Assembly: GCA_024653945.1 (NCBI GenBank)
Contig: JANLIT010000002.1
Coordinates: 11,940-75,939 of the forward strand
DNA length: 64,000 nt
Origin: Candidatus Campbellbacteria bacterium
GTDB lineage: Bacteria > Patescibacteriota > Minisyncoccia > Phycocordibacterales > EsbW-18
Direction: 5' to 3'
The notes under the pieces are model-generated. The model was given only the letters and a program-made list of their open reading frames with translations, was not told the origin of the DNA and did no database searches. The position numbers were made by a program, and so were the translations under genes. Position 1 is the first letter of the stretch; the number at the start of each line of letters is the position of its first letter. Below, piece by piece: positions 1-13,181 of the stretch.

Positions 1-11
1 AGAAAACGAAA

Positions 12-45
12 GCGCCCCGCCGAGCACTTTGTGCTAGGCGGGGCA
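12..45. terminator. GC-rich hairpin gccccgcc..ggcggggc, member of a recurring terminator family (also near 50640, 58790, 31095, 41690)
   Basis: inverted repeat gcgccccgccgagcac/gtgctaggcggggc read directly. Confidence 0.4.
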
Positions 46-297
46 ATCGGTACTGCTTGAGGTCCAGGTATTTATGGGGTCAAGGTGCTCATGCAAGCCG
101 GACAGTATTTGTTGTTGCAGGGCCAACAAGGACAGTCTCTGCCGTCATGTGGCCTACCGCAGTTGTGCGGTTCTCGATGAGTGTCCTCGGGTTTCACTGT
201 GGACTCCAACTTCTCGGTGACGACGATTTTATTTTTCATAACAAAACCTCCTCAGGTTCAATGTCTGCGGGAAATATATCACACTCTCTTGAATACA

Positions 298-332
298 AAA
301 AACCACCATCGAGGTGGTTTTTTGTTTTTGTG
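298..332. terminator. bidirectional rho-independent terminator downstream of the tmRNA 3' end
   Basis: aaaaaccacc-atcga-ggtggttttttgttttt: stem flanked by A-run and T-run. Confidence 0.55.
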
Positions 333-386
333 GCGCCGCAAAATGCGGCATCCTACAAAATTATATTCGTCTGCGACTCATTAATT

Positions 387-760
387 TTGTGGAGATGGTG
401 GCGATGAAGCCACGTCCAATATGTGATGTCATACGAGTCTACGTAATCTAGCGTTGTCTTGAGGTCTTACACACTATCTTAAAGACAGGCGAAACGATAG
501 CGTGCCAGAACCGATTGGTGTTACGTATTCGTCGGAACATCCGAGTACGCTAGTTTGAATTGGTTTACACCCGCTAACACCTCTCAAACAAAGATGTCAG
601 AAGACGTCGCTTAGGCGTTAACGAAAGCGAAATCCGATACCGCGAGGTATGGACTTTTGACTGCAGATTGTGCAGGTATGTTTGTACTGTTTTAAGGAAG
701 TCAGCACACTTCCACCACGCACGTATAACAATCGTCACATTGTCGAAACGAGGCATCCCC
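387..760 (-). ncRNA. ssrA: tmRNA (SsrA), standard one-piece, ~370 nt
   Basis: Minus-strand 5' end GGGGATGCCTCGTTTCGACAATG matches the tmRNA 5' consensus GGGGnuG...GGAUUCGAC. 3' end ...GGACGTGGC-TTCATC-GCCAC-CATCTCC-A is a T-arm-like stem-loop followed by a 7-nt strand complementary (with G-U) to the 5' GGGGATG acceptor, then discriminator A. CCA is not encoded. Candidate tag ORF ..AVSDFAFVNA* around 611-645. Adjacent to smpB. Confidence 0.6.
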
Positions 761-871
761 CGACACGAAAGAAATAACAAAGCACAAATATCAAAGTTCA
801 AAAAATAGATGTTCTCCATTCTTTGGATTTTGAGTTTTGGATTTTGAACTTCCACCGCTTCGGTGGTGCCT

Positions 872-1321
872 CTAATATTCTCTTTTCAAAGTACGACGCA
901 TATCTTTTTGCGCTTCTTTCTTCTTCAGTGATTCACGCTTGTCTCCTTTTTTCTTCCCACGAACCAACGCGCAATCAACCTTTATCAATCCTTTCTTATT
1001 ATACATCGATAACGGTACTATTGTCAATCCCTTCTGTTTTTCGCCATCGGCCAATTCTCTGATTTCTTTCTTAGAAAGCAATAAACGGCGAGTTTTCTCG
1101 GGGTCGTAGTTTTCAGGCTGATTTTTTGGCTGATAGGGGCCAATGTGCATTTTCACCAAAAATGCTTCCCCTGCTCGCACGACAATATATGCTCCATCAA
1201 GCGAGCCATTACCTGCGCGTATTGATTTTACCTCGTATCCTTTGAGCTCAATACCCGCCTCAACGTGTTCAAGGACCTCAACGTCGCGGAGCACTTTTTT
1301 ATTTTGAATCAAGGACGCCAT
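872..1321 (-). CDS. smpB: SsrA-binding protein SmpB
   Basis: 149 aa; VKSIRAGNGSL..GAYIVVRAGEAFLV..GPYQPKN..DPEKTRRLLL.KKEI typical SmpB. Confidence 0.9.
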   Translation of the reverse strand: MASLIQNKKVLRDVEVLEHVEAGIELKGYEVKSIRAGNGSLDGAYIVVRAGEAFLVKMHIGPYQPKNQPENYDPEKTRRLLLSKKEIRELADGEKQKGLTIVPLSMYNKKGLIKVDCALVRGKKKGDKRESLKKKEAQKDMRRTLKREY

Positions 1322-1518
1322 ACACGTATCATACCACTACTGCCTGCCCCTTTAACAAAAAAGCCTCGCACGGCTTTCAAGTGCAGGGTTTTTTTGTTGT
1401 ATCCCAACCACGGTGGCGGGGTTACTTAGTTAATACTGATATATAGTCAAAATGTTACTTTCTGCTTACTACCTACTACTTTCTACTTTTGCTTCCTACT
1501 TACTACTTCTTACCATCC

Positions 1519-1917
1519 CTATCCCTTTGTGCCGTCTCTAGTGATTGAAAAGAGTTCATCAAAAATTTGTGAGGGAGGAAATGCCGCTTTAAAAATAAAT
1601 TTGTGCACGCCTAACTTTTTTGCTTCCGTCATGACCGCATCACCCGCCGTATTGGAAAGAATTGCAATCTCTGCGTTCGGTACTAGGTTCTCTTCACGAA
1701 TCACTTTCAACACATCCATGCCCGACATGCCCGGCATTGTAATATCAAGCGCAACAATATCTGGCACAAAGTCGTGTCCGCGAAGAATATCGAGTGCATC
1801 CTTTCCGTTCAGTGCGATACGCAAATTGAGACCCTCCTTTGCCGCACGTTTTTGGTACAACGACATGAGAAACTCATCATCATCAACCATGAGTACTTTG
1901 TGTGATGTCTGTATCAT
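1519..1917 (-). CDS. response-regulator receiver (CheY-like REC) single-domain protein
   Basis: VLMVDDDEF..D..LDITMPGMSGMDVLK..KLGVHKFIFK: acid pocket, phospho-acceptor Asp and conserved Lys. Confidence 0.8.
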   Translation of the reverse strand: MIQTSHKVLMVDDDEFLMSLYQKRAAKEGLNLRIALNGKDALDILRGHDFVPDIVALDITMPGMSGMDVLKVIREENLVPNAEIAILSNTAGDAVMTEAKKLGVHKFIFKAAFPPSQIFDELFSITRDGTKG

Positions 1918-1959
1918 ATGGAGAAAAGAGTTACTAATAATACATTTTCTCGTGCGTAG

Positions 1960-2352
1960 TTATTTGATGTGCGCAACAGAGAGCAGTTCGTCAAAAACCT
2001 GTGAGGGTAAGAGAGACGCTTTCATAATAAATTTTGAAACGTTCAGGTCTTGCATATCTTTTGCAAGGTCATTTTCATTGTTGTTGGAAAGAACAACGAT
2101 GCGCGCTTGTGGTACAAGTTTTTCTGCACGAATTGTTTTCAAGAGGTCCATACCGCTCATGCCCGCCATGGTTACATCAAGGGCAATAATATCAGGAACA
2201 AGTCCTTCGCGAAGTTGCGAGAGGGCCTCTTCACCACTGAATGCCGTAGAGAGTTCAACAGGATACCCCTCCGCCTTTTTTTGGTACAAGGACACGAGAA
2301 ACTGGTCGTCATCAACCATAAGAATCTTTTGTTTGTTTTGTGGCGTGTCCAT
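1960..2352 (-). CDS. response-regulator receiver (REC) single-domain protein, tandem paralog of 1519..1917
   Basis: ILMVDDDQF..LDVTMAGMSGMDLLK..NVSKFIMK; ~45% identical to its neighbour. Confidence 0.8.
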   Translation of the reverse strand: MDTPQNKQKILMVDDDQFLVSLYQKKAEGYPVELSTAFSGEEALSQLREGLVPDIIALDVTMAGMSGMDLLKTIRAEKLVPQARIVVLSNNNENDLAKDMQDLNVSKFIMKASLLPSQVFDELLSVAHIK

Positions 2353-2548
2353 ATCGTAAGGTCAACTATAGCAAAACCACAGGGGCACGCTATGGGTAAA
2401 AACCATTTTGGTGGACTACATAGAAATATTGTCTAAAGAGGAAAATGTGCTATAGTAACAGCGTAAAACACATTGCCCAAAACTATATAACAACCTACGC
2501 CTTCATTAACATCTTATTGCTTACTACTTTATTCTTACTTCTACCCTC

Positions 2549-3070
2549 TTGAGTACCCCAAACAGAAACCGCGTCCGCATGAATGCATTAATCACCGCAA
2601 CCGAAATGCGTGTGATGGGTCCCGATGGAGAAAATCTCGGTGTACTTCCACGTGAAGAAGCTCTCGCCAAAGCGCGCGAGTTCGGACTTGATCTTGTTGA
2701 AATTTCTCCAAACGCAACTCCTCCTGTGGTAAAGATTATCGAATACGGAAAATACTTGTACGAACAAGCAAAGAAAGCTCGTGAAAACAAGGCGAAGTCG
2801 CACCAAACCGAGACCAAGAGCGTGCAGGTCAAAATCGGTACCTCCGAGCACAGCATGGGTATCAAAGCCAAACAAGCATCACAGTGGCTTGCTGAAGGTC
2901 ACCGCGTGCGTTTTGAGCTCTATTTACAAGGCCGTGCTAAGTACTTGGACAAAACCTTCCTCAAAGAGCGTATGGAACGTTTCCTCAAGTTCATCACCGT
3001 GGACTTCAAAATTGCCGAACCTGTCAAACAGGCACCTAAGGGTATGAGTATGGTGCTTGAGAAAAAATAA
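2549..3070 (+). CDS. infC: translation initiation factor IF-3
   Basis: INEEI-like N-terminus (MNALITATEMRVMGPDGENLGVLPREEALAKAREFGLDLVEISPNATPPVVKI), C-terminal domain SVQVKIGTSEHSMGIK. Track start is TTG at 2549; an in-frame ATG lies at 2579. A non-AUG start is classic for infC. Confidence 0.9.
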   Translation: MSTPNRNRVRMNALITATEMRVMGPDGENLGVLPREEALAKAREFGLDLVEISPNATPPVVKIIEYGKYLYEQAKKARENKAKSHQTETKSVQVKIGTSEHSMGIKAKQASQWLAEGHRVRFELYLQGRAKYLDKTFLKERMERFLKFITVDFKIAEPVKQAPKGMSMVLEKK

Positions 3071-3083
3071 CTCTCCGCTCCTG

Positions 3084-3170
3084 CCCTATTTTTGAGAACA
3101 CGAAAACCGCCTGCTGGCGGTTTTCTCTCTCCGACGTCGCCACGCCTACAAAGTTTCTCAAAAATAGGGC
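3084..3170. repeat. palindromic terminator-like element (family also at 21444, 31153, 36855) directly 3' of infC
   Basis: ccctatttttgagaa...aaaaccgcc-tgct-ggcggtttt...ttctcaaaaataggg: outer inverted repeat enclosing a terminator hairpin. Confidence 0.6.
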
Positions 3171-3340
3171 TTCGCTACGTACACGCCGGACCCTGTATGC
3201 AACAGGCTCCGCCTATTAAAAATACAGAAACCACTTGCAAAAAGACAATAAAAATGTACTATGGGTAAGCCCATGTGGGCCTCTTTTTATGAGGACGGGG
3301 CTTCCAACCTCTCACTTCTAACCTCCAACTTCCACTTTAT

Positions 3341-3526
3341 ATGAAGACCAACAAAGCATATTCAAAACGACTTCGCATCACGAAAAACGGTAAGGTTATC
3401 GGCCGAAAAGCTGGTGGCAACCACTACAATGCTAAGGAGTCCCGAAGCACACAACTCGCACGCAAGCGTTCACGAATCATTTCACTTACACCAAAAATCC
3501 GCACGCGTTATTTGCCGTCAAAGTAG
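3341..3526 (+). CDS. rpmI: 50S ribosomal protein L35
   Basis: 61 aa basic protein MKTNKAYSKRLRITKNGKV..RKAGGNHYNAK between infC and rplT (conserved infC-rpmI-rplT order). Confidence 0.85.
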   Translation: MKTNKAYSKRLRITKNGKVIGRKAGGNHYNAKESRSTQLARKRSRIISLTPKIRTRYLPSK

Positions 3527-3574
3527 TTTTCTTATTTCCAACGTCTAACATCTAACTTCCAACTTCCACTTTAT

Positions 3575-3946
3575 ATGACCCGAGTAAAACGAGGAACAAT
3601 TGCACTCAAACGCCGTCGAAATGTGCTCAAACGAGCAAAGGGTTTTCGTAATACACGAAAGAGTAAGGAGAAGCTCGCAAAGGAGTCACTCGTAAAGTCA
3701 GGAATGCACGCATTTGCACACCGCAAAGATAAGAAAAATGATTTCCGTCGATTGTGGCAAACACGCATTTCCGCAGCGGTTGCTCCCCACAACATTTCAT
3801 ACAGCAAATTCATTGGTCTCGTGAATGCAAAAAAGATAACACTGAACCGCAAGATGCTCGCAGAAATCGCGATGACACATCCTCAAACATTTGAACGTAT
3901 CGTCAAACAAGTTCTCGCTCCTCAAACAAAGACAACCGCAAAATAA
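3575..3946 (+). CDS. rplT: 50S ribosomal protein L20
   Basis: MTRVKRGTIALKRRRNVLKRAKGF..RLWQTRISAA..ISYSKFI: L20 signature. Confidence 0.9.
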   Translation: MTRVKRGTIALKRRRNVLKRAKGFRNTRKSKEKLAKESLVKSGMHAFAHRKDKKNDFRRLWQTRISAAVAPHNISYSKFIGLVNAKKITLNRKMLAEIAMTHPQTFERIVKQVLAPQTKTTAK

Positions 3947-3956
3947 TAAAAACACC

Positions 3957-3992
3957 CCCAACATCCTATCGGGGGTATTTTTATGTCCACAA
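3957..3992. terminator. bidirectional intrinsic terminator between rplT (+) and the ABC exporter (-)
   Basis: aaaacaccccc-aacatcctatc-gggggtatttttat: hairpin with T-runs on both strands. Confidence 0.6.
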
Positions 3993-4012
3993 AAAATTAC
4001 TGTGTCTTTACA

Positions 4013-5827
4013 CTATTGATTCTTTTCCATAAAACCACTTACTTGCAAATCCCACAACTTCTTATACAAACCACTATCTTTGTTTGATAACTCATCGTGT
4101 GTTCCATCTTCAACAACTGAACCATTACCCATAACTATAATACGGTCCATTTTTTTCACAGTTGAAAGTCTGTGTGCAATAACAATCGTTGTACAGTCCT
4201 TCATAAGATTTTCTAAAGCACCCTGAATGAGCGACTCTGAGTATGAATCGAGACTTGACGTTGCCTCATCGAAAATAAGTATGGGAGCTTTTTTCAGTAT
4301 TGCTCGTGCGATAGCAACACGTTGACGTTCTCCCCCAGAAAGTTTTATTCCACGTTCACCAACAAACGTTTCATATTTCAAGGGCAAGGTATCAATAAAT
4401 TCATCGCAGTGTGCAAGACATGCGGCTTCCTTAACTTCTTCATCGGTAGCATCTCGACGACCATATCGAATATTTTCAATAAGTGTTCGATGAAAGAGGA
4501 CTGGGTCTTGAGGCACAAAACTGATGTTTTCACGGAGGGATTCCTGCGAAACAAGGCTGATATCTTGACTATCAATGCGTATTGAACCTTTTGTGAGGTT
4601 ATACAGTCGCATGATGAGCCGTACAAGGGTTGTCTTCCCAGCACCAGATGGACCAATAATAGCAACCTTTTCTCCTGGTTTAATGGTGAGGGTGATGTTG
4701 TGTAACACTTTATTATTTTCTCCAAACGCAAATGATATAGAGTCAAACACTATTTCACCTCGTGTCACAACTAACTTTTTTGCGTGTGGTATATTTTTGA
4801 TTTCATGCTTTGTAAGCAAAATATCAACCATCTCTTTTGAATCAGCGATACTTTGATAAATATTTCGAATTATTTTGTTGAGACCCCACAATTGGTTAGC
4901 AACACCAATAATGTACGTCTGTGCCAACACAAACGTACCTATCGTAATAAGACCAAGGCTCCAGTATCGTATCGCAAAGTAAAATACGAAAAATTCAACA
5001 ACAGATATCAGTAAAATTTGTATGGCATCTACAACGTTTCCCAAACGCCAAGAGAAGAGTATTTTTTGGGCCTGATCATTAGAAACTCCTTGGAAACCAA
5101 GTGATTCATGTTTATGGCCGGTGAAAAAAGATATCGCATTGTTGTTTGTTATAGAATCCGCCAAATACCCCGTGGTTCGAGAGTCAGCCTCAGCAACGGC
5201 CGTATCATATTTTAGTTTCCATGTAGAAAACACCACACTAAAGACAACAAATATGACAACCCACACCCCTAAAATAACAGAAATAACAGGAGCCACAGAC
5301 CATGTAATCCATATTGAACCAATAATAGTTATGGTAAGAGGCATCATATTAAAGGCCACGCTGTCAGTGAGAGCCTCAAACGCACGGCTGAAACGACCAA
5401 CCCTTTGAACAAGACTTCCACTAAAATTGTTAGCAAAAAAAGTATATGAATGCTCTATCATATAGGTAAAAGCATTCTGTTTTAAACGCGCCATAACACT
5501 GGACTGCATTTTTGTGAAAAAGTATGTTCCCGCTTGCCAAAAAAGTTGATTTCCTAAATGTAAAAATAAGATAATAAAAATTACTCTATTAAGATCTGAA
5601 ACTACAGAAACGGGGTCTGTGGATTTTCCAAGAATATCAAAAACGTCTTTGTAGTAGAGAGGAACAATAACGTTGACAATCTGAGCACAAAAAAAGAAGA
5701 CGTACGAAAAAACAAACCAGTTTTTCATTGGTCGTACACCATTCCAAAACTGGGTCATTATTTGACTAATGGAAATATTTTGACCTAATCTGCCACTTTC
5801 TTTCATAACCTTCACACTATACAACAA
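4013..5827 (-). CDS. ABC exporter, fused permease-ATPase (MsbA/bacteriocin-exporter type)
   Basis: 604 aa; N-terminal 6-TM domain; C-terminal NBD with Walker A GPSGAGKTT, signature LSGGERQRVAIARAIL, Walker B ILIFDEATSSLD, H-loop IAHRLST. Confidence 0.9.
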   Translation of the reverse strand: MLYSVKVMKESGRLGQNISISQIMTQFWNGVRPMKNWFVFSYVFFFCAQIVNVIVPLYYKDVFDILGKSTDPVSVVSDLNRVIFIILFLHLGNQLFWQAGTYFFTKMQSSVMARLKQNAFTYMIEHSYTFFANNFSGSLVQRVGRFSRAFEALTDSVAFNMMPLTITIIGSIWITWSVAPVISVILGVWVVIFVVFSVVFSTWKLKYDTAVAEADSRTTGYLADSITNNNAISFFTGHKHESLGFQGVSNDQAQKILFSWRLGNVVDAIQILLISVVEFFVFYFAIRYWSLGLITIGTFVLAQTYIIGVANQLWGLNKIIRNIYQSIADSKEMVDILLTKHEIKNIPHAKKLVVTRGEIVFDSISFAFGENNKVLHNITLTIKPGEKVAIIGPSGAGKTTLVRLIMRLYNLTKGSIRIDSQDISLVSQESLRENISFVPQDPVLFHRTLIENIRYGRRDATDEEVKEAACLAHCDEFIDTLPLKYETFVGERGIKLSGGERQRVAIARAILKKAPILIFDEATSSLDSYSESLIQGALENLMKDCTTIVIAHRLSTVKKMDRIIVMGNGSVVEDGTHDELSNKDSGLYKKLWDLQVSGFMEKNQ

Positions 5828-5880
5828 AAATCACGTTGAATCATCTCAAACTAAAGACAGAAACAAGAAAAGTTGCATAA

Positions 5881-5910
5881 TAAAAACCCTCGCTTCTGGC
5901 GAGGGTTTTT
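5881..5910. terminator. bidirectional terminator hairpin
   Basis: aaaaaccctcgc-ttct-ggcgagggttttta. Confidence 0.55.
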
Positions 5911-6370
5911 ATTTCTTGTTGTTCTGATTGATAACAGTAAGCCACTTACCCTTATCTTTTTGACATTTTCGTAGTGAAAGTTTTTCGGAAACCTTCCACA
6001 TACCACCATATATCTTTTTTGCAGTTTTGAGTGAATCTTGCAGGTTCCTTTCATCGCTTACAAAAATGCTTCTTTTACGAGGAAAGAACTGCCAAACCGA
6101 TGGGTCTATTGCATATACTACATTCTTTTCTTGTATCGCTAAAATATCGTGAGATTGCTTGGTGTTACACACCCTATTACCTTTCAACACATGTACAACG
6201 GCCTCCGGAAAGGATTTAAGAACAAAACACCCAGCTAATCGGGATAGTTCACTGCAGTTATCCGTAGCTAAACTAGCCAAAGATTGTCTTGTACCTCCAG
6301 ATTTTCTTAAAACTTTTTTGGCAAAGTTCTGTATCTTATCTATGTTCTTTTTTGTGATGCTGTTTTTCAC
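5909..6370 (-). CDS. hypothetical protein (153 aa, basic)
   Basis: ORF in AT-rich native composition, co-directional and 4-nt overlapping with the upstream gene; no recognisable motif. Confidence 0.45.
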   Translation of the reverse strand: MKNSITKKNIDKIQNFAKKVLRKSGGTRQSLASLATDNCSELSRLAGCFVLKSFPEAVVHVLKGNRVCNTKQSHDILAIQEKNVVYAIDPSVWQFFPRKRSIFVSDERNLQDSLKTAKKIYGGMWKVSEKLSLRKCQKDKGKWLTVINQNNKK

Positions 6371-7059
6371 TGGGTGCTTTTAACATATTCAAACAACCAC
6401 GGAATGTATGTGCCCACATCTGATTTCTCTTTCCATGTTGTTAATGCCTGTTTGAGCATCGGACGATGGTGTGGATAGAAAATCATTTTCTTTACGCCGT
6501 GTATAGATGAAAACGGTTGAGTCGAAAGAATCACTGAGTTGAAGATTTCAGACACATCCCATAAAAAAGGACTTTTATACAGTTTCGGAAAATATTTCTT
6601 CACATAATCAAAAAAGAAAAAATGTAGAATTTCGTGCGCAGTGACAAAACGAACACCATCTTGATGTTTCCAAAAAATTTGAAATGACTTCGTTTCCAAA
6701 AAACGAGGGTTGCAGTCTATTATCGACAGAAAAGCGCGATACCCCTTTCGTGGTGTTGGTTTTTTACCAAACATTTTTTCCACAGTAGTAAAATATATGT
6801 TTTCTGTAACAGACCATTCTTTCTTAAAGATAGAAAGTGTTTTGCGCAATTCTTTATTATGTTTTGTGTAAAAAGTATCCACGTACTTAGAAACCACCTC
6901 TTTTCTTTTTTTAAAAGAAAGCTCTTTCACTTTTTTAAGTTGGGGATGTACAGAAATAATACCTGCACCAAAATCAACCCCACCCTCTTCCGCTGATAAA
7001 AAATCGAGGATAATTTCTTTGTCTAGCTTTTTATTTAATTGAAATGATGTCTTTTTCAT
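6367..7059 (-). CDS. hypothetical protein with HExxH motif (putative Zn-metallopeptidase-like)
   Basis: ..VTAHEILHFFFFD..; ATG at 7059 (the track ORF extends to 7152 on an alternative start); overlaps the P-loop gene by 29 nt. Confidence 0.5.
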   Translation of the reverse strand: MKKTSFQLNKKLDKEIILDFLSAEEGGVDFGAGIISVHPQLKKVKELSFKKRKEVVSKYVDTFYTKHNKELRKTLSIFKKEWSVTENIYFTTVEKMFGKKPTPRKGYRAFLSIIDCNPRFLETKSFQIFWKHQDGVRFVTAHEILHFFFFDYVKKYFPKLYKSPFLWDVSEIFNSVILSTQPFSSIHGVKKMIFYPHHRPMLKQALTTWKEKSDVGTYIPWLFEYVKSTQ

Positions 7060-7510
7060 TTTTTGGTGTCCTTCTGGAAAAGACAACTGTTTGAACCTTA
7101 CGATTATCCCAATCGGTCGTCTTGAGTATTTTTTGAAGATGTAGAACCTCATCTCTCATACTCCTCGTTACAATAAAAATTGCGGGAGTTTGTATCTTTT
7201 TTAAGACTCTAAACCATCGAGCAACTTTTTGGAGGTATTTTTTACTGTAGTGGGGTTTTTCCGTTGAGCGTTTCTCCAAAAATTCTTTATCTTGAAAAGT
7301 TTCTACTTCATCAACGATTACTACCCTTCCCTTTGGTGAGGTACGTATCCGGTCACAATCGGGAAAATACGAAACTGCCATTTTTTTACGTTTTAGAAAT
7401 GGTATAAGTTCCTTCAAAACAAAGTATGTTTTCCCGGAATCACTTGTACCAACTAAAAAGACACTCTTCTTTTTCTTGAGTAAGTTATAAATCTTATTTT
7501 TACGGTTCAT
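7031..7510 (-). CDS. small P-loop NTPase
   Basis: Walker A VFLVGTSDSGKTYF, Walker B-like VVIVDEVE; ATG at 7510 preceded by TATAAT only ~6 nt upstream (leaderless-type start). Confidence 0.6.
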   Translation of the reverse strand: MNRKNKIYNLLKKKKSVFLVGTSDSGKTYFVLKELIPFLKRKKMAVSYFPDCDRIRTSPKGRVVIVDEVETFQDKEFLEKRSTEKPHYSKKYLQKVARWFRVLKKIQTPAIFIVTRSMRDEVLHLQKILKTTDWDNRKVQTVVFSRRTPKNEKDIISIK

Positions 7511-7532
7511 AGCTGAATTATATAAAAGAAAT

Positions 7533-7563
7533 ACGGAGAGAGGAACACTTCCCTCTCTCCGTA
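7533..7563 (-). terminator. intrinsic terminator after the rSAM-peptide pair
   Basis: minus-strand acggagagagg-gaagtgtt-cctctctccgt followed by atttctttt. Confidence 0.6.
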
Positions 7564-7575
7564 TGTAGTGCTGGA

Positions 7576-7698
7576 TCACTTCGTCCGGCACGGGATGTTC
7601 TTGGCCATCTTGCAGCCTGCGCCCGCCTTGGAGTGCTTGGAGCTGCAGGGACGCGGCTCGGAAGCCACAGCAATGCGGGTTCTGCGGTACTTACGCAT
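7576..7698 (-). CDS. 40-aa basic Cys-containing peptide MRKYRRTRIAVASEPRPCSSKHSKAGAGCKMAKNIPCRTK (candidate rSAM substrate/precursor)
   Basis: ATG 6 nt after the rSAM stop codon, SD-like GGGGGTGAAAG upstream, 3 Cys, ~62% GC against a ~40% background, followed by a terminator. Not in the ORF track because it is under 60 aa. Confidence 0.4.
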   Translation of the reverse strand: MRKYRRTRIAVASEPRPCSSKHSKAGAGCKMAKNIPCRTK

Positions 7699-7704
7699 GT
7701 TCTT

Positions 7705-9003
7705 TCACCCCCTTTCGTGTGCGTAGAAGTGGATAACGTCGCACTTATGCCTAGACGGTATCCTGTAGTCACCGCCCTCTACGAGAGCTAGGCCAATGCA
7801 ACTGTCGCAGTAATTCCGATTGCGACAGACCATGCACTGCTGCATCTCTCGAAGAGAGAACTGAGTGAGTACCTGTTTTCGTCGTCGGAGAATCTCGGCC
7901 AATGACTCAGAGGAAGTATCCCCCAACGGTACCCTGAGATCGAGACAAGGATAGACAACGCCCCGTGGGTCAATGGCTATTTGATCCCTACCAGCAAAAC
8001 ACACAGTGTGATTTCGACAGTCGCGATACTTCTTCTGGGTAGGAAAACCGCCGATGCGATCCAGAAAAGGCTTAAACTTCTCTTCCATCTCCTGATACGA
8101 AAGACGGAAAAGCACTTCTTTTCCTGGGCCACTACGGTTCGGTGTAATGTATGGACTGTAGAAAATCGACGCTCCGATTTTCGTTAGAACATCGTGGACC
8201 TCATCGATTCGGTCGATGTTGTGTTTTCCAACCAAAACCGAGAGTGTGACGGGTAGTCCGCACCGAAGCATCTGACGGACGCTCTCCTTGAGTCGATCAA
8301 ATCGATATACCGACCTGGTTAACTCTGAGTACCCAGTCCGTGTTTCATACACCGAAACCTGGATGTCGTACAGGTGAAATCGTGACAACTTTTCGACGGT
8401 ACCCAGAGTGAGAGCCGTTCCGTTCGTTTTTAGTTCCAGAACGAAACCAATCTCCTCAAGATCTTCCATCACAGAGATAGCGTCTCTGCGGAGAAAGAGC
8501 TCTCCTCCTGTAAGAAGAACAAAAACCACTCCCGCCGACTTCAATTCTTGTCCCAACTTCTGAATTCTGTCCCTGGACAAGCCCTTCTCATGGAAGTTGT
8601 CCAAATAGCACCAACTACAACGCTGGTTGCAAAGATACGTCAGCTCGAGATTCGCGTTGATAACCTGCCACTCGCGTATTGCGTAAGCAGACAACTCCTC
8701 TAATGCCGTCTTTTGGGTCCGAATCACTTTTTGTGGGAACCTGTACGCCGACTCATCAGACAAGGAACGAATCACTTCTTTGATTTCAGCAAAATCTGTT
8801 GTAATGTCACCACTATCCTCTGGACGAAATTGCTCCAGAAAATCGTTGGTGAGTTGATGCTGTGGTTCGTTGACAATTCTAACTGCCTGACTTGCAAGAG
8901 GACCCTCGAAAAAAGCTGATTTACGGGTCGTCTTATTAATGATGAATGAAGCGCCCCGAAAATCTCGTGAGATAAGGTTTTTCACGGCCACACCCCTTTT
9001 CAA
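7705..9003 (-). CDS. radical SAM enzyme with C-terminal SPASM-type auxiliary cluster domain and ~100-aa N-terminal extension (possible peptide-recognition domain)
   Basis: CNQRCSWCY (CxxxCxxC) about 120 aa in; C-terminal Cys cluster CFAGRD..YPC..CMVCRNRNYCDSC; GC higher than surroundings. Confidence 0.85.
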   Translation of the reverse strand: MKRGVAVKNLISRDFRGASFIINKTTRKSAFFEGPLASQAVRIVNEPQHQLTNDFLEQFRPEDSGDITTDFAEIKEVIRSLSDESAYRFPQKVIRTQKTALEELSAYAIREWQVINANLELTYLCNQRCSWCYLDNFHEKGLSRDRIQKLGQELKSAGVVFVLLTGGELFLRRDAISVMEDLEEIGFVLELKTNGTALTLGTVEKLSRFHLYDIQVSVYETRTGYSELTRSVYRFDRLKESVRQMLRCGLPVTLSVLVGKHNIDRIDEVHDVLTKIGASIFYSPYITPNRSGPGKEVLFRLSYQEMEEKFKPFLDRIGGFPTQKKYRDCRNHTVCFAGRDQIAIDPRGVVYPCLDLRVPLGDTSSESLAEILRRRKQVLTQFSLREMQQCMVCRNRNYCDSCIGLALVEGGDYRIPSRHKCDVIHFYAHERG

Positions 9004-9111
9004 AGAACTGTAGATGTCGCAGAAGTCTCTATCGTTCTGCTGGTGATAATAAAAGCTGCTACGTATTCTGTCAATACCTCCACAAAATCGACTTTAGAAA
9101 AATTTTATCCT

Positions 9112-9139
9112 CTACATTGCTGGGAATTCGACGAAAAAG
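9112..9139 (-). repeat. direct-repeat copy of the histidine-kinase 3' end (encodes FFVEFPAM*), att-like
   Basis: ctacattgctgggaattcgacgaaaaag aligns with 10702-10728 and 11403-11432, including the in-frame stop. Confidence 0.6.
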
Positions 9140-9142
9140 TGT

Positions 9143-10680
9143 TCACTTTTTAAAATATCCATTCTGTATGCTGTATTCTCTTGTTATCCCAAGGTGGCCA
9201 CATAAGTCTTCGTTGTGAGAAACAATCAGAATTGCACCCTTGAAGTTAGCGAGTGCCTCTGTAAATACAGAGATGGTAGAAATGTCCAAATTGTTAGTTG
9301 GTTCATCAAGAACTACACAATCAAAGTCAGCAATGGTTATCATCGCCAGAGAAAGTCGTGCCAACTCCCCACCGGAGAGTGACCCGGCTTTTTTATTTAC
9401 CTCTGGTGTTTCTCTAAAAAGAAATTGAGCCAAGTGTGTACGCAAAAGTTTGTCATCTGTTGTATGTGTAATACGCTGTATATTTTGAAGTACAGTAAGT
9501 TCTCGGGAAACCAAATCATAGTGCTGGTCTAAATACACCACCTTCAAACTTGGCGTTTTTTTGACTATGCCAACAAGTTTTGCAGGGGAGGTGTCGTCAA
9601 AAAGTGCTCTAAGAAGAAGTGTTTTACCAGACCCATTATCTCCCGTAATCCGTACCCTGTCTCCGGTAAACACATCAAAAGAAATATCCGATACCACTGT
9701 TTTATTTGGAAGAACGAGGTTGGCACCATCAACCGATACTACAAATCTTCTACCTATTTTTTTTGAAGGTACATCAAGCCGTACAATGTGTTTTTTAGAG
9801 AGTATGGCATCCTGCAAATCCTCTTCTTTTTCTTCTTTTGCACTCTTTAGTCTCGTGAGGTTCTTTCCTGATTGTTTCTCCGATTGTTCTTTAAAATATC
9901 CCTTTTCGTACGGCGACATATTGTTGTCCAGTTTCTCTTTTTTTCCAACAGATACAGACCTCTGCTTCTTTGTGTGTTCAACAACAAGTGCCAACTTCGC
10001 TTGTTTCACTATTTTTTTCTTTGCCTCAAACTGGCGCGTGGCAGCGGCGCGTTCGTTCTCAATCAATTGTGCATACGTCGTATAGGTACCTTCCGTGGTT
10101 CTAATTTTTTGATGTTCAATGGTCCAAATTTGGTTAGTTGTTGCATTCAAAAAGTCTATATCGTGTGACACGACGACATACGCACCCACAAAAACTTTTA
10201 GATAGGACTTCAGACGAGCAATTCCAGCAGAATCAAGATGATTGGTTGGTTCATCAAGTAATAGAATACCTGGGGCCAACACTCGAGCAAGAGAAAGATA
10301 TACTTTGATGTATTCCCCACCAGATAAGTTACTCATTTTTGAGTCGAAGGGTACTGTTTTTTTGAAAGGGTCAAAAACTCTTTCTCAAAAAGATGTTTTG
10401 AAACCGAGTGTTTGGATAAGAGAGTGGCAAGAGTGGCTTCTTTATCTGCATCTCTTTTTTGAGGAACAATAAATACTTTTCCATTCACTGTGCAAGAACC
10501 TGTGTCTGGCGCAATATCCCCATGTATCATTTTGAGCAATGTCGTTTTTCCTGTTCCGTTATCACCAATAAGACCAACACAATCTCCTGAAAACAGGGTG
10601 AGGTGCGAAATATGCCACAAAAGCTGATCTCTTATTGAGTAGGATGCGTCTTGTATGAGAATAAGAGGGTTCCTGTTCAT
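9143..10680 (-). pseudogene. ABC-F family ATPase (two NBDs, EttA/Uup-like), interrupted by a frameshift in a homopolymer
   Basis: Track ORFs 10333..10680 (Walker A GLIGDNGTGKTT) and 9143..10336 (starts MSNLSGGEY: signature, Walker B LLLDEPTNHLD, then a second NBD with GDNGSGKT, LSGGELARL, VVLDEPTNNLD) meet at a 7-T run (+ strand 10357-10363). Eight would restore one 500+-aa ABC-F reading frame. Confidence 0.7.
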
Positions 10681-10701
10681 ACCCCCATACTACACCGTAC
10701 C

Positions 10702-10728
10702 TACACCCCAGGGAATTCGACGAAAAAT
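10702..10728 (-). repeat. direct-repeat copy of the histidine-kinase 3' end (encodes FFVEFPGV*), att-like
   Basis: ctacaccccagggaattcgacgaaaaa; reverse complement reads TTT TTC GTC GAA TTC CCT GGG GTG TAG. Confidence 0.6.
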
Positions 10729-10761
10729 AAGGTTGGATATCTTTTATGTCATAATGAGTAC

Positions 10762-11406
10762 ATGGAAGAATCAATCAAACTATCTTTTGAATATTCAAAA
10801 TCTCTTGAGAAAGAGAGAGTTATCAATACAATCAAGCGCCTTCCGTGGTATCGGGATAATAGATATAACGTTGATATAATTGCTTTCCCAAAAAATCTCG
10901 ATACGAATAATCTCGTAAGTACTTCTGACGAGGACATTTTAAATGCTATCGATTTAGAATATAACCAAGAAAAACACATCTCCTCTGAAAAAGAAATGAC
11001 AAAACTTTTTAGCTTATACGAAGGTAGATTAGTATCTTTTTTGAAAGAGACTGAGTTGCCTATCATCTCAAATATTATCGTTCATTTGGTTATGTATGGC
11101 ACAGCAGGAAGTTATTCCTTGCCCAATAAGGTAATCGTTAATATTTCAAAGTTTTACAATGTTGGACTAATGAGAAATATACTCCATGAAATCATCCATC
11201 TACACATTCAACATCTGATAGATACATACAAAATTGGCCAGTGGGAAAAAGAACGAGTGGTTGATTTATTGATGGAGAAATGTTTTCCAGAAATAACAAA
11301 ACAACAACATATTCAGATAGATACCACAAAAATTGATGAGGTATTCAATACACACTACCCAAACGTGCCATATATACTAGAAACTATTGGAGAGATATCT
11401 CGCTAA
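10762..11406 (+). CDS. hypothetical protein with HExxH motif
   Basis: NILHEIIHLHIQH; ATG at 10762 (track ORF starts earlier at 10651); convergent with the HK and overlapping its stop. Confidence 0.5.
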   Translation: MEESIKLSFEYSKSLEKERVINTIKRLPWYRDNRYNVDIIAFPKNLDTNNLVSTSDEDILNAIDLEYNQEKHISSEKEMTKLFSLYEGRLVSFLKETELPIISNIIVHLVMYGTAGSYSLPNKVIVNISKFYNVGLMRNILHEIIHLHIQHLIDTYKIGQWEKERVVDLLMEKCFPEITKQQHIQIDTTKIDEVFNTHYPNVPYILETIGEISR

Positions 11407-13181
11407 ACCCCAGGAAATTCAACGAGGAAGGTGGAGCCTTTACCTCGTCCTTTGGACTCGGCCCATATGCGTCCATTGTGTGCAGTAACAATTTGCTTGG
11501 CAATAAAGAGTCCGTAGCCGGTGCTGTGCACATTGGTGATGCGTGAGTCTTTTCCGCGCCCACCCTCGGTGAAGAGCACCGCCTTGTCTTCGTCCGTCAG
11601 CCCCACACCGCTATCTTTAACAGAGAAAATAATCTTACCGTCTTTGTGTGCAAGAGACACGGTCACCGAACCCTCTGGCGTGTAGTTGATGGCGTTATCA
11701 ATAAGATTTTTAAGCACGTGATTGAAAATATAGTCGGCATCTCCTGAAATCGTATATTCATCCCCCTCTGGTATATCCAAAGCAAGTGCTAGTTTCTTGG
11801 TTTCGGCGCGCCTCTTCATGTCCTCAATCCCCTTCATAAGCAATTCCTTCAAACTCAAATTTTGCATTGCATATGTGACTTGCCCCGTCTTAAAGTCAGA
11901 CACATGCAAGAAATTTTTAACCTCAGTAACTCCCTCTTGTGTACGCCTCAATGCTTCTATAGATATCGCCTTAATATCGGGAGCAACGGGACCAAAACTT
12001 TCAGTGGCAATCGCATCAAACCCAGCCGATGCATCAGTAAGGTACCCTTTAACTTCGTGTGTGATGAACCGGAGTGTCTCAAGTTGTCGCACATTCGCAA
12101 ATTCCAAACTCTTTGCAAGTTTCTGTGTCTCCTCACGCAATCGCACTTCCTGTTTCACACTTTTAATAAGGGCTGTTCCGACGGCCGTAACTAGGCCAAG
12201 CGTCGCAATAATCACATATCGAACATTTTCAATTCTTCGAACAAAGAGCATCGCAAATACCAAGACACCAAGGGCTATCACAAGCATTTGCGTCCCAATA
12301 ATACGCGTGTTGAAGGCATGAAACTTCACCATCATGTATGCAAGAAAGGCAATGAAGAGAACCATTCCAATTGGTCCAATTAGGTTCACCTCATACACGG
12401 AAAAAATATCACCAGCAACGTTAGTTGCTGTAAATATGGAAAGGAAGAACACCGACGCTACTGAAAGCATGACAATCTGCTTTTTAAATTCACCTTCTGC
12501 CGTCTTACGGAAATAGTGAATTCCTAGGTAACCAACAAATGCAATTGCAAAGAATTCGAGAGCATAGATGTAATACCAGAGAGGCCCGTTTATACCCTCG
12601 CAATTAATAAGGTCAAAGGCAACCATATTAAAGCGCGAAGGTAACAAAGCAATAACCGGTGCATACAAGAGGAGAAGTACTCCGTTTTGGTTAATATTCA
12701 AACTCGACTTCTTTAAATAAGTCCAAGTAAAATAGACAACTAAAAACACTAGTGTTACCTGGAAAAATGCCGACATTTCCCAACCAAAATGAACAAAATC
12801 TGCTCGAACAGCTATCCACGTCACTACCTCATTTAAAATAAGTGACGCAAACGTTAGAGAAAGCGCGAGTAGTAGTCTTGAGTGTATTTGTTTTGGGTTT
12901 TTAAAAAAGATAAAAAATCCAAAAAAAACTGAAAAAATAGCGATTGGCAAATATGCATAATAAAGGAGCGTGGGTGCAATTGTTGTATCAAACAAACCAA
13001 GGAAGTTTGCTGTCGAATCGAGACAAAGTAACATTTCCATAACAAAATTGTATAATAGATTCATGAAAAAACAAAAGGGGTATTCGTGGATGAATAAGGG
13101 TTTAAAAGTTAAAAATACAAAAAAGTATGGGGGTGGGGTTTTTGCTACTAGAAATATAGCCAAAAACGAGATACTGGCCAT
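11403..13181 (-). CDS. sensor histidine kinase (multi-TM sensor, HisKA + HATPase_c)
   Basis: About 9 N-terminal TM helices, H-box FITHEVKGYL, N/G boxes (LKNLIDNAINYT, DSGVGL, GYGLFIAKQIV), C-terminus ..STFLVEFPGV*. Likely true start is the ATG near 13040 (MEMLL..). Confidence 0.85.
   Translation of the reverse strand: MASISFLAIFLVAKTPPPYFFVFLTFKPLFIHEYPFCFFMNLLYNFVMEMLLCLDSTANFLGLFDTTIAPTLLYYAYLPIAIFSVFFGFFIFFKNPKQIHSRLLLALSLTFASLILNEVVTWIAVRADFVHFGWEMSAFFQVTLVFLVVYFTWTYLKKSSLNINQNGVLLLLYAPVIALLPSRFNMVAFDLINCEGINGPLWYYIYALEFFAIAFVGYLGIHYFRKTAEGEFKKQIVMLSVASVFFLSIFTATNVAGDIFSVYEVNLIGPIGMVLFIAFLAYMMVKFHAFNTRIIGTQMLVIALGVLVFAMLFVRRIENVRYVIIATLGLVTAVGTALIKSVKQEVRLREETQKLAKSLEFANVRQLETLRFITHEVKGYLTDASAGFDAIATESFGPVAPDIKAISIEALRRTQEGVTEVKNFLHVSDFKTGQVTYAMQNLSLKELLMKGIEDMKRRAETKKLALALDIPEGDEYTISGDADYIFNHVLKNLIDNAINYTPEGSVTVSLAHKDGKIIFSVKDSGVGLTDEDKAVLFTEGGRGKDSRITNVHSTGYGLFIAKQIVTAHNGRIWAESKGRGKGSTFLVEFPGV

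Follow-up and report, generated by a model that had tools for sequence, protein, structure and literature searches.

What does a gene for a peptide-modifying enzyme act on when no substrate gene has been annotated beside it? This question is raised by a stretch of 64,000 nucleotides (here called the window) from a contig of a Candidatus Campbellbacteria bacterium (JANLIT010000002.1), which encodes on its minus strand a radical S-adenosylmethionine (radical-SAM) enzyme with a SPASM domain, followed directly by an open reading frame (ORF) of only 40 amino acids. We find that this small ORF is, judged by the comparison of related loci, a real protein-coding gene, and that its product is probably the precursor, that is, the substrate, of the adjacent enzyme. 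The pair is best read as an undescribed radical-SAM-modified peptide system, found mainly in ultra-small bacteria of the Patescibacteria, or Candidate Phyla Radiation (CPR).

The ORF had been picked out in a first-pass annotation made from the sequence alone, and most of what was said there about the locus is borne out. The frame is present with the sequence as quoted; the computed isoelectric point of the peptide is 11.05, with 12 Lys and Arg residues against a single Asp or Glu; and its three cysteines are residues 18, 29, and 37, with spacings of 11 and 8. The ATG (7696–7698) lies six nucleotides (AAGAAC) past the TGA of the enzyme gene (7705–7707) and is preceded by the Shine-Dalgarno sequence GGGGGTGA. 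The strong terminator reported after the peptide gene is a 15-bp stem with a T-run at 7564..7531 (minus strand), beginning 11 nucleotides past the peptide stop codon, and the 84-amino-acid ORF that was said to overlap in an alternative frame does exist, at 7518..7772 (minus strand).

Is the ORF a gene? Loci for comparison came out of collections of genomes and metagenomes and out of look-ups with exact proteins, giving a close set of 25 distinct loci in which the enzyme is 32–76% identical to that of the window; L013 and L014 derive from assemblies of the Hainich aquifer. A small ORF of the same peptide family lies beside the enzyme gene in all 25: directly downstream, behind a GGAGG-type Shine-Dalgarno sequence, in 24 loci, and upstream of the enzyme in L099/L100. 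All three peptides that were looked up from the peptide side likewise adjoin the enzyme gene, so that the proposed co-occurrence of the two is seen in every peptide context examined. As a control, the motif is missing from 73 loci whose radical-SAM/SPASM enzyme is at most 30% identical, bar one chance match in a long ORF. The first-pass annotation had also set beforehand the test of whether homologous regions conserve this reading frame, and they do. Differences at codon positions 1, 2, and 3 number 3, 4, and 12 between the window and L002 (nonsynonymous divergence dN 0.08, synonymous divergence dS 0.66), 4, 7, and 11 between the window and L013, 1, 2, and 8 between L007 and L008, and 2, 0, and 9 between L007 and L019 (dN 0.03, dS 0.74). 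Third codon positions thus carry most substitutions in the close pairs, with dN/dS between 0.04 and 0.30. An ORF of 40 codons is not significant by itself; what makes this one significant is that frame, motif, and position are conserved in every related locus.

The alternative is that there is no gene here, and that the ORF arose by chance in a GC-rich 3' untranslated region (UTR) or within a structured RNA. The region is indeed GC-rich, it folds better than its shuffles (z = −3.2), and a second frame overlaps. However, the terminator hairpin accounts for much of that z score, and no Rfam match was obtained either with permissive thresholds on positions 7000–9200 or with gathering thresholds on the whole window, which also holds no tRNA or tmRNA; together with the frame-specific conservation, this led us to reject a structured RNA in place of a gene. 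The 84-amino-acid frame was rejected as a gene as well, being reduced to 25 amino acids in L002 and missing in the other relatives, whereas the amino acid motif of the peptide is kept, through different codons, in loci ranging from 23% to 64% GC. The comparative sequence data already refute the non-gene reading, and we give it next to no weight.

Four of the loci should be read with qualifications. The contig of L005 ends within the peptide, and the peptide of L018 is divergent and lacks the first cysteine; L001 has a shortened tail (1374–1491), in that the peptide stops early and the tail is readable in another frame, and L003 has a one-nucleotide insertion inside the KHSK of the peptide gene (4281–4407). 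In L097 the enzyme is reduced to a 130-amino-acid SPASM fragment next to an AbiJ gene (5590–5982). The L001, L003, and L097 copies show signs of decay or of assembly error.

An alignment of 37 distinct peptides shows a family of two unequal halves. The N-terminal half, M-[KR]-x-[YF]-x-[KR]-x-[RK]-[IV]-x-[IV], is basic, variable, and strand-like, with an aromatic residue and alternating hydrophobics, and is followed by the conserved core C-x2-K-[HQK]-S-K-x(2-4)-C. Within the core C29 is invariant, and 90% or more of the peptides retain each of C18, K21, S23, and K24; position 22, His in the window, varies to Gln or Lys. Single exceptions are KHAK in P0098, KHSA in L103, and the missing first cysteine of L018. 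The tail with the third cysteine, K-x2-[KR]-N-[IV]-P-C-R, is found only in long-form peptides: Peribacteria-type peptides end directly after the second cysteine (...YECNGKHSKNAC[R]), and some other members are without this tail as well. Members are rare, and no curated model covers them. Among 1.84 billion representative proteins, a profile search recovered only 11 true clusters, and a word-indexed search of 5.8 billion proteins recovered 25 clusters at 90% identity; these carry no informative name (one is called “hypothetical protein”) and no Pfam domain. No match to the peptide was found in Pfam, in NCBIfam at E up to 1, or in PADLOC, and a literature search that included the motif strings returned no description of the motif or the family. 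One further hit of the peptide profile, P0100 (968 amino acids), was discarded as a false positive, a eukaryote-like tandem repeat. The peptide gene is annotated in only some assemblies and was left uncalled in six of the seven distinct enzyme-anchored loci checked.

What kind of enzyme stands beside it? Its translation probably starts at the GTG at 8985 (Shine-Dalgarno sequence AGGGGTG), giving 426 amino acids as in the homologues, and not at the TTG at 9003, which would give 432. The protein matches PF04055 (Radical_SAM; E = 7e-15, 56 bits, cutoff 29.5) and PF13186 (SPASM; E = 4.6e-8, 33.7 bits, cutoff 21.5). All 19 sequences compared keep the CX3CX2C motif (C125/C129/C132), and seven cysteines of the SPASM region (C335, C353, C390, C393, C399, C402, and C421) are invariant or nearly so. 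The sources of 68 strong homologues (E < 1e-56) are by name almost all Patescibacteria/CPR, with Zambryskibacteria, Parcubacteria, Gracilibacteria, and Peribacteraceae among them; phage and plasmid collections gave no close homologue, the best match being below 28% identity. The top NCBIfam models are NirJ2, MftC, MoaA, ScmE, WgkB, PqqE, StsB, SkfB, PapB, and AlbA, all far below cutoff (in bits, MftC 69.9 against 265, PqqE 59.7 against 381, StsB 58.9 against 625, SkfB 50.1 against 300, PapB 44.7 against 340, and AlbA 40.4 against 850), so that the enzyme belongs to no curated family.

An AlphaFold (AF2) model of the enzyme was built from the 19-sequence alignment (pLDDT 88, pTM 0.88). It predicts with high confidence, in residues 10–82 and N-terminal to the radical-SAM barrel, three strands followed by three helices, a topology that, going by known PqqD-like domains, is that of the recognition element (RRE, a PqqD-like domain) of peptides that are made on the ribosome and modified after translation (RiPPs); on this model the N-terminal domain is likely an RRE. 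The best structural matches are the peptide maturases SkfB, CteB, and SuiB, the last being the best full-length Foldseek match, with about 460 aligned columns, a TM score of 0.58–0.62, and 13–14% identity. SkfB, which like SuiB bears an RRE, also aligns over the full length. The suggestion in the first-pass annotation that the peptide could be a RiPP precursor fits such an enzyme.

If the peptide is the substrate, its parts can be given tentative roles. If it behaves as in RiPPs that depend on an RRE, the N-terminal half, which is variable, basic, and strand-forming, would be the leader that docks on the RRE-like domain of the enzyme, whose 5'-deoxyadenosyl radical would then modify the core C-x2-K-[HQK]-S-K-x(2-4)-C. 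As to the chemistry, our guess is that one or two intramolecular thioethers might join the conserved cysteines, above all C29, to Lys21 or Lys24, giving a small cationic macrocyclic peptide. This guess is made because the Cys and Lys residues persist in nearly all variants, because the core offers no aromatic partner for a C–C link of the SuiB type, and because the two top structural neighbours are thioether synthases; such a Cys–Lys cross-link is possible, yet we would not call it probable. Two products of neighbouring genes may also take part: a P-loop ATPase could plausibly contribute an ATP-dependent step, and an ABC exporter, as predicted from its sequence, could plausibly export the product.

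Several observations weigh against this picture of a modified precursor and its maturase. Pfam scans of 16 N-terminal domains did not detect PF05402 (PqqD), and that domain of the enzyme, taken in isolation, has no sequence match in the PDB, even by profile search. Enzymes that do not form thioethers are found among the structural neighbours at nearly equal scores and similar Z. An argument from an open iron site, used for the thioether synthase CteB on the basis of its structure, was dropped here: 14 of 19 homologues have an eighth cysteine in the SPASM region, C329, so that the auxiliary clusters may be fully protein-ligated. A conserved core with a variable leader is the reverse of what most antimicrobial RiPPs show and resembles peptides of the cofactor or SCIFF type. 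The precursor gene lies 3' of the enzyme gene and is translationally coupled to it, an atypical order, and one in which the precursor would not obviously be made in excess of the enzyme. Finally, the ABC exporters carry no C39 peptidase domain, and no leader-cleaving protease was seen.

Several rival explanations were weighed. The peptide could be a substrate of the enzyme but serve as the scaffold of an intracellular, cofactor-like or house-kept molecule, comparable to PqqA for pyrroloquinoline quinone (PQQ), MftA for mycofactocin, or SCIFF. The core is conserved at phylum-level distance (enzyme identity about 40%) whereas the leader drifts, which is the pattern of PqqA, MftA, and SCIFF. The loci have no dedicated protease, about half of them lack an exporter in the 3–5-kb flanks, and the better NCBIfam matches include MftC and PqqE. 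Both matches nevertheless fall far under their cutoffs (70 against 265 and 60 against 381 bits), the distribution is sporadic, with only 11 clusters of the peptide in a set of 1.84 billion representatives, the neighbourhood holds no conserved dehydrogenase or oxidoreductase that could be a dependent partner, and ABC exporters are adjacent in the Peribacteria. We consider the cofactor explanation unlikely.

Quite unlikely, in our estimate, is a conflict system in which enzyme, peptide, and ATPase are borne on islands and the modified peptide acts against phages or other bacteria, inside the producer or on a neighbouring cell, and not as a secreted bacteriocin of the classical kind. Defence or mobile genes lie within 5 kb in six of the roughly ten distinct contexts that were viewed more widely, and in the window the enzyme and peptide genes have a higher GC content than their flanks, suggesting transfer. 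That figure is, however, a plain count, bacteriocin and other accessory cassettes sit in variable islands too, and the window's own context is no defence island; PADLOC reports no specific defence system for the cassette, only a generic likeness of the radical-SAM core (residues 118–272) to the viperin (pVip) models at 47 bits and a marginal match of the P-loop ATPase to Csx3 (E = 0.003), with nothing for the peptide. The other suggestion of the first-pass annotation was a small basic ribosome- or nucleic-acid-associated protein, which we extend to metal binding: the peptide would have its own function, unmodified, and its adjacency to the enzyme would reflect co-regulation only. An isoelectric point of 11 with 12 basic residues in 40 would suit this, three cysteines and a histidine could bind metal, and the peptide gene exceeds its neighbours in GC at third codon positions (GC3) in 12 of 13 loci, as a highly expressed gene might. 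The suggestion fares poorly all the same: there is no match in Pfam or NCBIfam, the histidine varies to Gln or Lys, many members lack the third cysteine, the family is rare, sporadic, accessory, and never seen apart from the enzyme, and that partner is, by its predicted structure, a peptide maturase with an RRE-like domain. We regard it as very unlikely. A precursor of the adjacent enzyme remains the reading that we prefer.

How does such a precursor–enzyme pair relate to known systems? It would work like other radical-SAM/SPASM RiPP systems, and it is of interest to RiPP and CPR specialists; since many uncharacterized enzyme–peptide pairs exist, it is not surprising in principle. It is not a member of any curated sactipeptide, ranthipeptide, SCIFF, PQQ, or mycofactocin family, because each of these tests for membership failed. 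Cysteine donors are present in the core as in sactipeptides and ranthipeptides (SkfA/SkfB, CteA/CteB, PapA/PapB, and subtilosin AlbA), given the invariant C29 and the C18 of at least 90% of the 37 peptides, but the enzyme scores 40–59 bits against cutoffs of 300–850, the precursor has two or three cysteines in a Lys/Ser-rich core unlike that of any described member, it is encoded downstream and translationally coupled, its conserved partners include a small P-loop ATPase, and the thioether is putative. The six-Cys pattern of SCIFF is not seen in the two or three cysteines of the peptide, nor is there an NCBIfam match at E up to 1. With streptide (SuiA/SuiB, also StrA/StrB) it would share a conserved and potentially reactive core lysine, as in the Lys–Trp cross-link, and SuiB has the architecture of RRE, radical-SAM core, and SPASM domain; in contrast to streptide, neither Trp nor any other aromatic partner is found in the conserved core, and the enzymes are only 13–14% identical. 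PQQ (PqqA/PqqD/PqqE) and mycofactocin (MftA/MftB/MftC) likewise combine a small peptide that has a conserved, reactive C-terminal part with a radical-SAM/SPASM enzyme, a conserved core and a variable leader are common to both, and PqqE and MftC appear among the sequence and structure matches. Here, though, the genes of the later pathway steps (PqqB/C/F, MftD/E/F) are missing, the enzyme carries its binding domain as a fusion where those systems have a separate PqqD or MftB, the scores lie far below cutoff, the peptide has neither E-x3-Y nor a C-terminal VY motif, and the distribution is rare and patchy.

The CPR/Patescibacteria live on tiny genomes and in dependence on other cells, and their natural-product biosynthesis is widely reported as scanty or absent. 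In one survey, the Patescibacteria genomes yielded zero gene clusters (PMC11613949). Graspetide clusters with unannotated small precursors, some with a SPASM enzyme, have been described from the CPR (Makarova et al. 2022, PMC8939145); the present locus differs from these in having no ATP-grasp ligase and a different precursor motif. Since gene callers overlook the peptide gene in most assemblies, genome-mining pipelines will under-count such systems. A compact system under purifying selection across several CPR classes would offer a testable handle on chemical interactions with hosts, competitors, or phages, and its simple core, with an invariant Cys and near-invariant Lys, makes an attractive target in the search for a new radical-SAM cross-link. 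One could go further and take the conserved trio (the radical-SAM/SPASM enzyme, the cationic peptide C-x2-K-x-S-K-xn-C, and the minimal ATPase of AAA-like type) for a radical-SAM peptide system of a new class, with undescribed chemistry such as a Lys–Cys cross-link, carried on mobile or defence islands of the CPR and a few other lineages and used in conflict or in dealings with a host bacterium (to defend against phages, or to attack the host or communicate with it) and not as an ordinary bacteriocin; taken as a whole, this we think rather unlikely.

The arrangement of promoter-like site, enzyme gene, peptide gene, and terminator (table 1) shows, at the level of sequence features, a single transcription unit. 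The translational coupling proposed in the first-pass annotation is supported across loci: the Shine-Dalgarno sequence is consistently placed within the 3' end of the enzyme gene, with an equivalent GGAGGTGA at the matching position in homologous loci, and the two genes overlap by four nucleotides in L004, L017, and L094–L096. Because the ribosome-binding site of the peptide is located inside the end of the enzyme gene, enzyme and peptide would be made together. A hairpin with a T-run, of different sequence, also occurs at the equivalent site in other loci. The order in L099/L100 (4340–6290) is different: a promoter (TTGACA-17-TATACT), the peptide gene with a GTG start, a terminator, the gene of the P-loop ATPase, and, 26 nucleotides past the latter and with its own Shine-Dalgarno sequence, the enzyme gene. 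This peptide-first order is that of classical RiPP operons.

Table 1. Features of the window and contexts of the cassette at other loci; positions in the window for the first nine rows, in the respective locus for the others.
Feature	Position	Strand	Remarks
Radical-SAM/SPASM peptide-maturase gene	7705..8985	−	Probable GTG start at 8985; mechanical ORF extends to TTG 9003
40-amino-acid peptide gene, putative precursor	7576..7698	−	ATG start; encodes MRKYRRTRIAVASEPRPCSSKHSKAGAGCKMAKNIPCRTK; conserved beside the enzyme gene, dN/dS 0.04–0.30
Shine-Dalgarno sequence GGGGGTGA of the peptide gene	7712..7705	−	Within the final codons and stop of the enzyme gene, overlapping the stop
Residues 1–16, putative leader gripped by the enzyme	7651..7698	−	Variable, basic, strand-like; from alignments and analogy with RRE-dependent RiPPs
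Residues 17–40, conserved core and tail	7579..7650	−	P-C18-S-S-K21-H-S23-K24-A-G-A-G-C29-K, tail MAKNIPC37RTK
Intrinsic terminator of the enzyme–peptide transcript	7531..7564	−	15 pairs, 7 of them G-C, then TTCTTTTATA
Promoter-like site TTGACA-17-TATTAT	9046..9074	−	Upstream of the enzyme gene; 11 of 12 consensus matches; predicted function
P-loop AAA-like ATPase, about 159 amino acids	7031..7510	−	Walker A GTSDSGKT, Walker B VIVDEVE; predicted function
ABC exporter (ABC_membrane and ABC_tran)	4013..5827	−	1.7 kb downstream of the peptide gene, same strand; Pfam
L097 context			AbiJ/Abi_C
L098 context	6291–12123		SNF2 with MZB helicase, Schlafen-AlbA2
L105/L106 context	8002–11323		CBASS operon (SMODS, E2/ThiF, JAB, patatin); IS630 helix-turn-helix in L105
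L103 context	1–4098		Eco57I/HEPN-AbiA fusion
L101 context			PIN, Rad52/SSB/primase
L011 context	14–1168 and 4377–6878		IS4-like transposase, NB-ARC/TPR protein

In 12 distinct loci (16 contigs), belonging to several CPR classes, the peptide gene has next to it, on its downstream side, a gene for a P-loop protein of about 150 amino acids. The family shares a Walker A motif GxxDSGKT, a Walker B motif hhhDEhE, and conserved KPYYS and TDW; its family matches are weak and generically AAA-like (AAA_22, nSTAND3, and, by profile search, a midasin AAA domain at E = 2e-5), and a single-sequence structure model was too poor for structure search (pLDDT 51). In the window and in most of its loci the gene sits past the terminator. 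A TATAAT box at 7517..7522 (minus strand) lies right after the T-tract of the terminator and six nucleotides before the ATG of the P-loop gene, which has no Shine-Dalgarno sequence, and similar boxes 6–9 nucleotides before the ATG occur in L001, L002, L003, L013, L017, and L099 (4500–4524). These positions suggest that the promoter of the P-loop gene overlaps the terminator, and the mRNA may, given the short distance and the lack of a Shine-Dalgarno sequence, be leaderless. That L099/L100 keep the adjacency of peptide and ATPase while placing the ATPase in one operon with the enzyme argues for a functional link.

The link of the exporter to the cassette is a putative and weak one, ABC exporters being common. 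An ABC exporter follows the peptide gene directly in five Peribacteria-type loci (L007, L008, L009, L019, and L097) and lies within 3 kb of it in L002 and L004. Other window genes were rejected as conserved partners, since the downstream genes of 261 and 153 amino acids, a 251-amino-acid HExxH-like protein, and an ABC-F gene have no homologues at the other cassette loci.

A number of observations suggest that the cassette is accessory and has moved between lineages. The peptide ORF has a GC content of 62.6% (GC3 80.5%), in agreement with the first-pass figure of about 62%; the background of about 40% given there for the genome was less accurate, the window averaging 44.2% and the flanking genes 34–40%. 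GC3 in the window is 0.52 for the enzyme gene and 0.81 for the peptide gene against about 0.33 for the flanks, where overall GC is 0.34–0.40. In L002 the enzyme gene has a GC3 of 0.46 with flanks of 0.34 GC, and the peptide gene is again GC-richer than the flanks. This excess in the window and L002 suggests acquisition by transfer. The peptide gene exceeds both the enzyme gene and the flanks in GC3 in the 12 of 13 loci mentioned above, which points to codon-level selection on it, whether for expression or for stability of the mRNA, in addition to any signal of transfer. The cassette is also found on high-GC contigs binned outside the CPR, in L011 (a Rhodospirillales metagenome-assembled genome) and L098 (flanks of 66% GC). 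With its defence and mobile neighbours (table 1) it behaves as an accessory island gene set, which would fit a role in competition or conflict.

Some features of the surroundings deserve a brief mention. The Peribacteria/Peregrinibacteria loci (L007 4417–4560, L008, L009, L019, L010, and L097 6094–6230) have a 3' UTR of about 130 nucleotides after the peptide gene, containing a hairpin GACAGC...GCTGTC and the nearly invariant element (C)TTAAACTCTAGCCGGCCTTAAG, followed by a terminator; the element is conserved amid diverging surroundings and is absent from the window. In the window itself, HExxH-like motifs occur in two flanking proteins, HEILH at 6367..7152 (minus strand) and HEIIH at 10651..11406 (plus strand), which have no family match, show no detectable relation to one another, and lack conservation at other loci. 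Directly upstream of the cassette lies an ABC-F “ribosomal protection-like” gene, split into 9143..10336 (397 amino acids) and 10333..10680 (115 amino acids) on the minus strand; with its two ORFs in different frames and joined by an ATGA overlap, it is, as read from the sequence, a frameshift or a pseudogene.

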